This document shows, in pieces, positions 18,268 through 23,851 of a stretch of 64,000 nucleotides of DNA (position 1 is the stretch's first letter; each line of letters starts with the position of its first letter). Source of the DNA: Eledone cirrhosa. Lineage: Eukaryota. Both the position numbers and the translations under genes were made by a program. The notes under the pieces were generated by a model, which saw nothing but the letters and a program-made list of their open reading frames with translations, ran no database searches and was not told the DNA's origin. The DNA lies in assembly GCA_964016885.1 (NCBI GenBank), contig CAXHJY010000628.1, positions 1 through 64,000 of the forward strand, given 5' to 3'.

Positions 18268-18678
18268 GGTGGCTGCCAACTCGTTTTCGAGTACGGCCAC
18301 TACTTTATATCCATGTAGGAGAACTCCTACTGATGCGCTAAACAAGTGTGACTTTTTAGTCCAGCCAGCGACTTGAAAACTCTGGTACAAACACTACACC
18401 TGTGACAATTATTGACACATAGTGCTGGGCCCATGGTACCATGTGACGACAAGTGCAGAGAGATCTCCAGATATAAAGCAATGCCTGTGCTGTGAAGCTT
18501 TTATAGTGAGGAAAGGCACTGCACAAAGCCAGTCCCACTCTCTTAACCAAGATGATATTTACCAAAAAGAAGAACAAGTCAACATCATTGGATACCATCA
18601 GGGTTGCAGGTCTTATATCAGAGTTTTCCTTCTCCTAGAATTCTGCCTTGACAAAGGCTAAGGGGTCATCTCTCCCGG
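18268..18678 (-). mobile_element. Non-autonomous bipartite RTE derivative, copy 1 (5'-truncated)
   Basis: Near-identical to copies 2-5; lacks ~195 bp of the 5' end; 3' end abuts (TA)n. Confidence 0.88.
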
Positions 18679-19344
18679 ACATAAATATATATATACATAC
18701 ATATATACATACATACATACATACACATACATACACATATACATACATATACATACACATATACACATACATATACATACATATACATATACATATACAT
18801 ACATACACACATATATACACATACATACACATACATATACACATACATACATATATATATACATATACATACACATATACATACATATACATACATATAC
18901 ACATACATATACATACATACACATACATATACATACATACATATACATACATATACATACATATACATATACACATATACACATACACATACATACACAT
19001 ATACATATACATATACATACACATACACATACATACATATATACATATACACACACATACATATGTATACATACATATACATACACATACACATATACAT
19101 ATACATACACATATACACATACATATACATACATACATACATATACATATACATACATACATACATATACATACATACATACACACATACATACATACAT
19201 ACATACATACATACATACATACATACATACATACATACATACATACACACATACATACATACATACACATATATATACATACATACACATATATATACAT
19301 ACATACATATACATATACATACATACATACATACATATATATAT

Positions 19345-19950
19345 GGTGGCTGCCAACTCGTTTTCGAGTACGGCCACTACTTTATATCCATGTAGGAGAA
19401 CCCCTACCGAAGCGCTGCATGAGTGTGACTTTTTAGTCCAGCCAGCGACTTGAAAACTCTGGTACAAACACTACACTTGTGACAATTATTGACACATAGT
19501 GCTGTGCCCATGGTACCATGTGAGGACAAGTGCAGAGAGATCTCCAGATATAAAGCAATGCCTGTGCCGTGAAGCTTTTATAGTGAGCAAAGGCACTGCA
19601 CAAAGCCAGTCCCACTCTCTTAACCAAGATGATATTTACCAAAAAGAAGAACAAGTCAACATCATTGGATACCATCAAGGTTGCAGGTGTTATATCAGAG
19701 TTTTCCTTCTCCTAGAATTCTGCCTTGACAAAGGCTAAGGGGTCATCTCTCCCGGTGATTTTGGATGGCCATTGACTCTTAAGAGCTCCTTTGCCCTTTG
19801 ACAGGTTTTGTTTTTAGTCCTGCAGGATGTCCAAAGTCACCCTCCTCACCAAGAAACCTTGGTGGGGTTGCCAGTTTAGTCGCCAACGACCCGACCATGA
19901 GACAGGTTGTACTGGGATACATGTTACCAGTAGCACCAACTGGTGACCCT
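19345..19950 (-). mobile_element. Non-autonomous bipartite RTE derivative, copy 2 (full length)
   Basis: RTE-type 5'-UTR motif ctaggagaaggaaaactctga (recognised from memory), C2H2 finger codons at 19404-19475, 3'-UTR hairpin ctcg-aaaa-cgag, (AT)n tail. Confidence 0.88.
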
Positions 19951-20650
19951 ACATATATATATACATATATATATACATATATATATACATATATATATAC
20001 ATACATATATACATATATATATATACATATATATATACATATATATATATACATATATATATACATACATATATACATACATATATACTTACATATATAC
20101 ATACATATATACATACATATATACATATATATATACATACATATATATATATATATACATACATATATATATACATTTATATATACATATATATATATAC
20201 ATATACATACATATATATATACATACATATATATATATACATATATATATACATATATATATACATATATATATACATATATATATTTACATATACATAT
20301 ATATACATACATATATATATACATATATATATATATACATATATATATATATACATATATATATATATACATATATATATATATACATATATATATATAT
20401 ACATATATATATATACATATACATATATATATATATACATATATATATATATATACATACATATATATATACATATACATATATATATACATATACATAT
20501 ATATATACATATACATATATATATATACATATATATATATACATATATATATATACATATATATATACATATACATATATACATATATATATATACATAT
20601 ACATACATATATATATATACATACATATATACATACATACATATATATAT

Positions 20651-21258
20651 GGTGGCTGCCAACTCGTTTTCGAGTACGGCCACTACTTTATATCCATGTA
20701 GGAGAACCCCTACCGATCCGCTGAACGAACGTGTCTTTTTAGTCCAGCCAGCGACTTGAAAACTCTGGTACAAAGACTACACTTGTGACCATTATTGACA
20801 CATAGTGCTGGGCCCATGGTACCATGTGATGACAAGTGCAGAGAGATCTCCAGATTTAAAGCAATGCCTGTGCTGTGAAGCTTTTATAGTGAGCAAAGGC
20901 ACTGCACAAAGCCAGTCCCACTCTCTTAACCAAGATGATATTTACCAAAAAGAAGAACAAGTCAACATTATTGGATACCATCAGGGTTGCAGGTGTTATA
21001 TCAGAGTTTTCCTTCTCCTACAATTCTGCCTTGACAAAGGCTAAGGGGTCATCTCTCCCGGTGATTTTGGATGGCCATTGACTCTTAAGAGCTCCCTTGC
21101 CCTTTGACAGGTTTTGTTTTTAGTCCTGAAGGATGTCCAAAGTCACCCTCCTCACCAAGAATCCTTGGTGGGGTTGCCAGTTTAGTCGCCAACGACCCGA
21201 CCATGAGAAAGGTTGTACTGGGATACATGTTACCAGTAGCACCAACTGGTGGCCTGAC
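20651..21258 (-). mobile_element. Non-autonomous bipartite RTE derivative, copy 3 (full length)
   Basis: Colinear with copy 2, with private substitutions. Confidence 0.88.
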
Positions 21259-23258
21259 ATAATATATACATACATATATATATACATATATATATATATA
21301 TATATATACATATATATATATATACATATATATATACATATATATATATATATATATATATATACATATATATATACACATATATATATATACATATATA
21401 CATATATATATACATATATATATACATATATATATACATATATATATATATACATATATATATACATATATATATACATATATATATACATATATATATA
21501 CATATATATATACATATATATACATATATATATACATATACATATATATATACATATACATATATATATATACATACATATATATATACATACATATATA
21601 TATACATATATATATACATATATATATATACACATACATATATATATACATATATATATACATATATATATATACATACATACATATATATATACATATA
21701 TATACATACATATATATATATACATACATATATATATATACATACATATATATATACATATATATACATACATATATATATACATATATATATATACATA
21801 CATATATATATACATATACATATATATACATACATATATATATACATATACATATAATATACATACATATATATATACATATACATATAATATACATACA
21901 TATATATATACATATACATATATATACATACATATACATATATATACATACATATATATATACATATACATATATATATATATATATATTCATACATATA
22001 TATATACATACATATATATATACATATATATATATATACATATATATATATATACATATATATACATACATATATATATATATACATATATATACATACA
22101 TATATATACATACATATATATATACATATATATATATACATACATATATATATACATATACATATATATATATACATATATATATATACATATATATACA
22201 TACATATATATATACATATAATATACATACATATATATATACATATACATATATATACATACATATACATATATATACATACATATACATATATATACAT
22301 ACATATATATATATATACATACATATATATATACATATACATATATACATATACATATATATATATACATATATATATACATATATATATACATATATAT
22401 ATATATATACATATACATATACATATATATATACATATATATATATATATACATATACATATATACATACATATATATATACATATACATATATATATAT
22501 ACATATATACATATATATATACATATATATATACATATACATATATATATATACATATATACATATATATATACATATATATATACATATATATATATAT
22601 ATACATATATACATATATATATACATATATATATACATATATATATATATATACATATATACATATATATATATATATATATATACATATATATATACAT
22701 ATATATATACATATATATATACATACATACATATATATACATATATATATATATATACATATATATATATATATACATATATATATATATACATATATAT
22801 ATATATACATATATATATATATATACATATATATATATATATACATATATATATACATATATATATATATATACATATATATATATATATACATATATAT
22901 ATATACATATATATATATATACATATATATATATATACATATATATATATATATATACATATATATATATATATACATATATATATATATATACATATAT
23001 ATATATACATATATATATATATACATATATACATATATACATATATATATATATACATATATACATATATATATATATACATATATACATATATATACAT
23101 ATATATATATATATACATATATATATACATATATATATATATACATATATATATACATATATATATATATACATATATATATACATATATACATATATAC
23201 ATATATACATATATACATATATACATATATATATATATACATATATATATATATATAT

Positions 23259-23851
23259 GGTGGCTGCCAACTCGTTTTCGAGTACGGCCACTACTTTATA
23301 TCCATGTAGGAGAACCCCTACCGATGCGCTGAACGAATGTGACTTTTTAGTCCAGCCAGCGACTTGAAAACTCTGGTACAAAGACTACACTTGTGACCAT
23401 TATTGACACATAGTGCAGGGCCCATGGTACCATGTGATGACAAGTGCAGAGAGATCTCCAGATGTAAAGCAATGCCTGTGCTGTGAAGCTTTTATAGTGA
23501 GCAAAGGCACTGCACAAAGCCAGTCCCACTCTCTTAACCAAGATGATATTTACCAAAAAGAAGAACAAGTCAACATCATTGGATACCATCAGGGTTGCAG
23601 GTGTTATATCAGAGTTTTCCTTCTCCTAGAATTCTGCCTTGACAAAGGCTAAGGGGTCATCTCTCCCAGTGATTTTGGATGGCTATTGACTCTTAAGAAC
23701 TCCCTTGCCCTTTGACAGGTTTTGTTTTTAGTCCTGCAGGATGTCCAAAGTCACCCTCCTCACCAAGAAACCTTGGTGGGGTTGCCAGTTTAGTCGCCAA
23801 CGACCCGACCATGAGACAGGTTGTACTGGGATACATGTTACCAGTAGCACC
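23259..23851 (-). mobile_element. Non-autonomous bipartite RTE derivative, copy 4 (slightly 5'-truncated)
   Basis: Colinear with copy 2; encodes [23 protein letters not shown]. Confidence 0.88.

Follow-up and report, generated by a model that had tools for sequence, protein, structure and literature searches.

A bipartite non-autonomous RTE-type element stacked in a polar AT-rich microsatellite of Eledone cirrhosa, and a fifth copy with a twin-priming layout

The 64,000-nt stretch of Eledone cirrhosa DNA analysed here (the window; positions 1 to 64,000, forward strand, of contig CAXHJY010000628.1 in assembly GCA_964016885.1) contains five copies of an RTE-type element with a full length of 606 bp. 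Four of them, c1-c4, are stacked in one microsatellite array of 17 kb, and the fifth, c5, lies 17 kb from the stack (Table 1). We consider it probable that c1-c4 arrived by serial insertion into an AT-rich array that already existed and was already polar, through an RTE enzyme acting in trans, with pairing of the element RNA fixing their orientation. The comparison of the copies, the junctions of c5 and the continuity of the array carry this proposal, and at least three of the four stacked copies are supported as separate insertions.

Table 1. Coordinates of the copies, their parts and the other repeats in the window
Feature	Position	Strand	Remarks
c1	18268..18678	-	411 bp, first 195 nt missing at 5' end
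c2	19345..19950	-	full length, 606 bp
c3	20651..21256	-	full length, 606 bp
c4	23259..23851	-	593 bp, 13 nt missing at 5' end
Spacer c1/c2	18679..19344		~0.67 kb, (CATA)-rich, C 0.23
Spacer c2/c3	19951..20650		~0.70 kb, (AT)n, C 0.10
Spacer c3/c4	21257..23258		~2.0 kb, (AT)n, C 0.09
c5, 3' piece	41281..41629	-	349 nt, element positions 258-606
c5, repeat tract	41630..41792	+	~160 bp, (TATG)n-type, directly upstream of the inverted 5' piece
c5, inverted 5' piece	41793..42047	+	element positions 1-273 less an 18-nt deletion
c5, 10-bp direct repeat	41271..41280		likely target-site duplication; repeated at 42053-42062, where it follows 5 extra nt
RTE 5'-UTR conserved motif, 23 nt	18617-18639, 19694-19716, 21000-21022, 23608-23630	-	c1, c2, c3 (1 mismatch), c4
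RTE 5'-UTR motif, partial	42014-42031	+	c5
Last C2H2 finger and stop codon of RTE-type ORF	18327-18398, 19404-19475, 20710-20781, 23318-23389, 41340-41411	-	c1-c5
3' UTR with predicted terminal stem-loop	23259..23317	-	59 nt, c4; stem-loop at 23260-23291
Broken RTE-clade RT fragment	1056-1632	-	contains a stop and a frameshift; truncated on both sides; candidate for a relative of the partner
Host microsatellite array	7537..24377		C on + strand throughout
5'-truncated LINE, open 628-aa RT frame	13163..15134	+	in the same array, strand opposite to c1-c4
SINE-like family, ~190 bp, with B box	28349-28740, 49059-49242, 49995-50372, 53935-54117, 54337-54692, 61923-62300		10 copies
Third small repeat family	29846-30051 (+), 30310-30390 (+), 31035-31100 (+), 31133-31323 (-)		internal palindrome
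UTR, untranslated region; ORF, open reading frame; RT, reverse transcriptase; LINE and SINE, long and short interspersed nuclear element; aa, amino acids.

The four stacked copies and their relationships

A first-pass annotation of the window had described four same-strand copies of about 610 bp with identical 3' ends, different 5' ends and spacers unequal in length and composition, all of which was borne out, with 13 rather than about 15 nt missing from c4. The alignment of c1-c4 is free of indels, with pairwise identities of 95.9-97.8%, and the final 57 nt of the element are invariant among them. Each of the four terminates in ..GCAGCCACC and continues with ATATA, a combination found five times in the window (0.31 expected), the fifth occurrence being that of c5. 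ATATA thus stands directly after the 3' junction in all five copies and the position of this junction is identical in all of them, whereas the 5' end is cut in two of the four stacked copies. Variation among c2-c4 is uneven, with 7 of the 24 variable sites lying within 29 columns (588-616, e.g. 23315-23345) at the end of the zinc finger described below; this cluster adjoins the 3' UTR, in which c1-c4 do not vary. Beyond a pure (AT)27 run, 60 bp further out (23906-23911), the six bases with which c4 begins reappear; slippage at the 5' junction and an assembly slip are candidate causes of this repeat (23846-23911).

All five copies were compared on the 349 columns that they have in common. Copy c5 differs from c1, c2, c3 and c4 at 14, 12, 15 and 13 columns, respectively, and c1-c4 differ among themselves at 12-16 columns, except for c3 and c4 with 6, giving an outside-minus-inside distance of -0.5 (95% interval -5.4 to 5.2). 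The tree is star-like, with c5 no further out than c1 or c2, and it is this shape that argues for at least three separate insertions. The ages of the copies are similar, with 6-9 differences from the majority state in each. The clade of four copies with shared flanks, proposed earlier as the mark of tandem duplication, was not seen when c5 was included, nor were shared spacers; such a clade was found for c3 and c4 only, so that serial insertion, as first suggested, is supported for at least three copies, while this pair may stem from duplication. Not all substitutions are private, in contrast to the first description: c3 and c4 share four derived sites. No run pattern beyond that of shuffles is shared by the inter-copy spacers, whose longest common exact string is 67 nt, compared with up to 63 nt for an unrelated tract. 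A 12-13 bp direct repeat at the c2 junctions may be a duplication of RTE size, with a chance of ~0.3 inside the array; the candidate target duplications at c1-c4 were not significant against random cut points and are unreadable inside the array, where the (AT)n after c1-c4 is indistinguishable from target DNA.

The affinity of c3 and c4 is one of several observations that weigh against separate insertion of every copy. The pair forms a clade with 100% bootstrap, as duplication predicts, and its four common derived sites (columns 494, 534, 549 and 595) were obtained in 0 of 200,000 trials under independent mutation. An irregular TTATGT, moreover, is common to the 5' junctions of c1 and c3 (18679-18686 and 21257-21264). 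It is found at none of the ~5,000 TA steps elsewhere in the array and hints at shared ancestry; other candidate origins are a joining scar or an RNA leader that was kept, with a deletion inside c1. An alternative is that unequal exchange or tandem duplication, acting via the adjoining microsatellite, raised the copy number on the spot from one or two insertions, and that repeat turnover and 5' deletions altered the copies afterwards. This would also suit the common strand of all four copies and an array that is itself internally duplicated (a 134-nt exact string lies at 9871 and 15345). Turnover of the microsatellite could have removed flanks once held in common, and a star-like tree would also follow from an early duplication. 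We nevertheless judge this explanation unlikely, given that c1 and c2 are as distant from the other stacked copies as is the remote c5, that three different 5' ends occur and that the spacers have no excess of shared strings. The sites shared by c3 and c4 all fall within a stretch of 102 columns out of 593, which has a chance of 0.018 under a uniform distribution, and over columns 81-480 these two copies differ by 9, compared with 9 and 7 for their pairings with c2. Such confinement, together with an ordinary 5' distance, suits a mosaic source or conversion, although changes are generally denser toward the 3' end and duplication of c3/c4 as a whole unit could still account for the pair. It is likely that c3 and c4 came from one source, or through local copying, conversion or retrocopying.

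The fifth copy and the host array

Copy c5 (41281-42047), which the first reading of the window overlooked, is composed of a 3' piece and an inverted 5' piece that overlap by 16 nt of element and are enclosed by a perfect 10-bp direct repeat. This string has a frequency of 0.0013 per base across the window and 0.0027 locally, and the chance of such a duplication within ten bases of the junction is ~0.01-0.03; RTE target duplications peak at 10-12 bp in length according to PMC4245944. The duplication and the 5' inversion together support mobility of the element by reverse transcription, and by analogy the layout of c5 is that of twin priming as set out in the consulted part of PMC2912911. Later inversion of the DNA was considered and rejected, as it would have shifted the upstream duplication inward and such a shift is absent.

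No added tail was found between the element's 3' end and the duplication in c5, the sole copy with readable junctions. The duplications enclose the (TATG)n-type tract of ~160 bp, which is on the 5' side, upstream of the inverted piece. Repeat DNA in that position counts as newly made by a criterion given in the relevant part of PMC2887409, which implies that the tract was absent before c5 inserted. Its far part is irregular, like an old genomic repeat, pointing to a 5' leader that was copied along with the element. It is therefore likely that c5, as a single case, carried ~160 bases of repeat DNA to its new site as a 5' leader; alternatively, the tract may have formed by slippage or grown later out of a short seed. 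An 18-nt string common to the c1 junction and the c5 tract was given no weight, because the window contains three occurrences of it and 15 of its 16-nt core.

The array that houses the stack is markedly polar, with 1188 C and 57 G on the plus strand in the 12,637 nt outside inserts. It also contains a LINE on the opposite strand (Pfam RVT_1, E 1e-31), which ends in a short doubled repeat and is probably young; we take it to be CR1/L2-like by resemblance. Polarity is the same on both sides of this CR1-like insertion and the 134-nt string is shared across it, suggesting that the array is a single old tract into which several elements have inserted. Some 5.6 kb of the same polar array extend beyond the CR1-like insertion, in a region free of RTE copies, and another 0.5 kb lie upstream of c4. 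Both flanks are in alternating repeat for four of the five copies (all four in this one array), compared with 36% of random positions and 0/10 copies of a ~190-bp SINE-like family used as control; an eleventh, 59-nt partial match was excluded from this control, and some of its flanks include the SINE's own head or a neighbour. The SINE-like family also has four same-strand pairs, so that stacking is not peculiar to the RTE-type element. Because c5 contributes nothing at its 3' end beyond the duplication, the array is likely to be a sink, or landing site, rather than a product of the insertions.

This bears directly on the feedback proposed in the first-pass annotation, in which every insertion adds an AT tail, so that the microsatellite grows and the tail serves as target for the following insertion. 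Every copy does end in (AT)n, c1-c4 could hide tails, and RTE insertions are described as generating repeats in Lepidoptera in the part of PMC2887409 consulted. However, c5 is tail-less at its readable junction, the same polar array runs on past the CR1-like insertion and upstream of c4, and spacers of 0.7-2 kb are far above any tail seen, which makes the feedback improbable as the driver of microsatellite growth. An array built of tails was rejected, as polarity and shared strings continue across the CR1-like insertion. Less probable again is a stack formed in a single event, whether the RT jumped between several RNA templates or copied a read-through multimer, with short linkers that expanded later: the head-to-tail order and similar ages of the copies would agree with it, and c5 suggests that RNAs with flanking repeat exist, but no duplication is readable around the whole stack, the spacers have the polarity of the outer array and, for the most part, its composition, and c2 has a candidate duplication of its own. 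We regard as very improbable that the element is a TA-targeting DNA transposon (a miniature inverted-repeat transposable element), or that the stack is an assembly artefact. The 4-bp inverted ends of c4, inside (AT)n, would agree with a transposon, but the full-length c2 and c3 are devoid of terminal inverted repeats, 5' ends vary, 3' ends are fixed and RTE motifs occupy both ends; repeats of such length are hard to assemble, but the differences among copies are substitutions without indels and partly shared, unlike read error.

Class of the element and its autonomous partner

Judged by its sequence, the 606-bp element is a bipartite non-autonomous RTE, with a 5' and a 3' end of RTE origin, a kind of element already known. 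The 23-nt 5'-UTR motif lies ~235 nt from the 5' end of the element and is exact in c1, c2 and c4. An identical 23-mer occurs 28 times in the consulted supplement of PMC5786205, in cephalopod SINEs aligned with the 5' UTRs of RTE-3_BF and AviRTE. The likeness to RTE 5' UTRs spans ~40 nt of the 5' part rather than the whole of it. At the other end, a profile built from 14 RTE C-termini, picked among the top matches of the search with the RT fragment described below, matches the finger frame in all five copies (E 9e-9 to 1e-5), whereas no other frame scored below 0.2. The RTE origin of both ends, as claimed before, is thus upheld. The C2H2 finger itself, which is not clade-specific, has a Pfam match with E 2.5e-5, just under the cut-off. 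It is present as first described, except that one more residue stands between finger and stop than in the string reported earlier, and that its last His is retained in c1, c4 and c5 only, hence in two of the four stacked copies. An RTE N-terminal profile gave no match in the copies, and tblastn with three full-length RTE proteins matched them in the finger region alone, with no endonuclease or RT coding sequence.

The 3' hairpin claimed earlier is predicted in all five copies, but its stability is mostly no greater than that of shuffles (z -0.9 to -2.25). The modelled stem-loop of the 59-nt 3' UTR is a likely recognition signal for the RT. The only two changes in the 3' UTR, both in c5, make up one compensatory pair; this is a single event, which 240 of 500 shuffles reach as well.

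The absence of a tRNA head, noted from the start, was confirmed: ARAGORN gives no tRNA anywhere in the window, A and B boxes (one mismatch allowed) are absent from the initial 160 nt of each of the five pieces that were scanned, and Rfam gives no match at gathering score for an RNA-gene head in the element. The identity of a tRNA- or 5S-headed SINE was accordingly rejected, there being no tRNA, no Rfam family and no Pol III box. Three Rfam scans for a 5' self-cleaving ribozyme returned only repeat-driven miRNA noise or chance matches, and a loose descriptor of the HDV (hepatitis delta virus) type gave 0-4 matches per copy against 0-57 in 30 shuffles, although a divergent ribozyme could escape it. 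Folding of the 5' 176 nt has a z of -2.0. Such ribozymes are present in some RTEs only, and are not needed for membership among bipartite non-autonomous RTEs.

The RT fragment at 1056-1632, which the first-pass annotation had suggested comparing with the element, is an RT of the RTE subgroup that matches the element, and a candidate relative of its partner; a 12-nt match is the sole stretch that fragment and element share. A search with this fragment returned 69 RT-type proteins, the best relatives being 66% identical, and 46 of these 69 RTE-type matches terminate in a C2H2 finger. The ending K[ST]x[AS]GLxSH, as in the element, was found in 10 proteins including the two best matches, and the RIGL type in 21. 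No nearer relatives of the fragment were found among 50% representatives. A word-indexed protein set yielded no candidate for either the finger frame (56 aa) or a side frame of 92 aa, and a 21-nt motif of the element had 0 matches in a prokaryote genome collection.

Proposed mechanism, other repeats and known systems

We propose that the copies would have entered the long (CATA)-polar microsatellite one by one through target-primed reverse transcription. The RTE enzyme, supplied in trans, would bind the 3' hairpin and nick a TpA step, with the AT-rich DNA end serving as primer. The element RNA likely runs into flanking repeat at both ends, and its (AU)/(UAUG) portion may pair with the C-bearing strand, thereby fixing the orientation in a polar array. 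Repeat DNA would likely travel as a 5' leader, as the c5 tract suggests. In the parts of PMC6007223 and PMC13295347 consulted, RTE enzymes are described as favouring TA and their tails as possibly pairing with the target.

Besides the observations on c3/c4 and on c1/c3, further points weigh against serial insertion guided in this way. A common strand for four of four copies has a chance of 1/8 and their span a chance of 0.06 within the array, neither of which is strong alone. Copy c5 lies at a short AT-rich site instead of in an extended array (flank scores 0.72 and 0.69). According to the same part of PMC13295347, Bov-B copies seldom have flanking targets that resemble their own 3' repeats, and the protein searches did not find a partner protein.

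A more far-reaching version is that RNA with microsatellite at both ends homes strand-specifically to polar (TA)/(CATA) arrays and exports (TATG)n 5' leaders from them, including by L1-like twin priming. We put this forward tentatively and consider it doubtful at present. If true, arrays would take up the element and also give rise to it, and such a loop could help explain the huge microsatellite load of genomes of this kind. The locus is a clean test case that separates the repeat as target from the repeat as product. Were the 5'-side transport suggested by c5 to hold genome-wide, it would be a way of seeding and polarising microsatellites in a repeat-rich genome that can be counted; on one window it is a lead.

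Other repeats accompany these elements. The ~190-bp SINE-like family, which resembles octopus SINEs, has its four same-strand pairs adjacent and outside TA arrays. The two longer copies of the third small family have (TA)n on both sides, suggesting that TA tracts take in several kinds of element. Positions 1-685 hold a perfect 310-bp tandem repeat with a 117-bp inverted copy, a layout reminiscent of Penelope-like elements; no Rfam match at gathering score was obtained there. A hammerhead-core-like motif occurs five times in the window (0.05 expected), within 1-685 and also at 2590-2613, 58901-58926 and 59880-59904. A 23-bp minisatellite with ~139 copies and 92% matches fills 35359-38577.

The class of the element and links between RTEs and microsatellites are already in print, whereas 5'-side transport of repeat with an L1-style inversion was not found in the literature searched. 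Nor was any report found there that describes RTE-type copies stacked in a TA array or a twin-primed 5' repeat leader, a negative that is weak as some search terms were strict; the consulted parts of PMC4476161, PMC4758252 and PMC5389967 have nothing on RTE inversions. An octopus RTE with a microsatellite 3' UTR is reported in the part of PMC9115989 consulted, and 13 recently active RTE families in O. vulgaris in that of PMC13282606. Motifs of the element were not found in the searched part of their supplements, and the family may already be catalogued in the remaining files.

Similar to RTESINE1/2, WALLSI3, RTE-N2_Lch and Bov-A, as these are presented in the consulted part of PMC5786205, the element joins an RTE 5'-UTR domain to the extreme RTE 3' end and has neither an RNA-gene head nor an ORF. 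Compared with the bipartite RTEs described there, it is longer than most at 606 bp and keeps the last ORF codons; four of its copies are stacked in one microsatellite and its partner LINE was not found. It shares the identical 23-nt RTE 5'-UTR motif with the Ceph-SINEs OegopSINE and SepiaSINE of the same source but, unlike them, has no tRNA head or A/B boxes and possesses an RTE 3' end. The microsatellite-generating RTEs of Lepidoptera, in the account of PMC2887409 as far as consulted, also have RTE ends joined to simple repeats; there, however, the repeat is the 3' tail and insertion is not site-specific, while in c5 it is the 5' side that bears the new repeat, and the four stacked copies occupy an array that already existed. 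DONG in (TAA)n and TRAS in telomeric repeats, both cited in that account, likewise use a pre-existing simple repeat as a sink, but they belong to other clades, and strict targeting is not established for the present element, c5 being at a short AT-rich site. Finally, c5 resembles the 5'-inverted, twin-primed L1 copies treated in the consulted parts of PMC2912911 and PMC4245944 in its inverted 5' part, forward 3' part and single outer duplication. Inversions are nearly confined to L1 in human cells according to that part of PMC4245944, whereas c5 is of the RTE type, comes from an invertebrate and bears ~160 bp of repeat at its inner junction.

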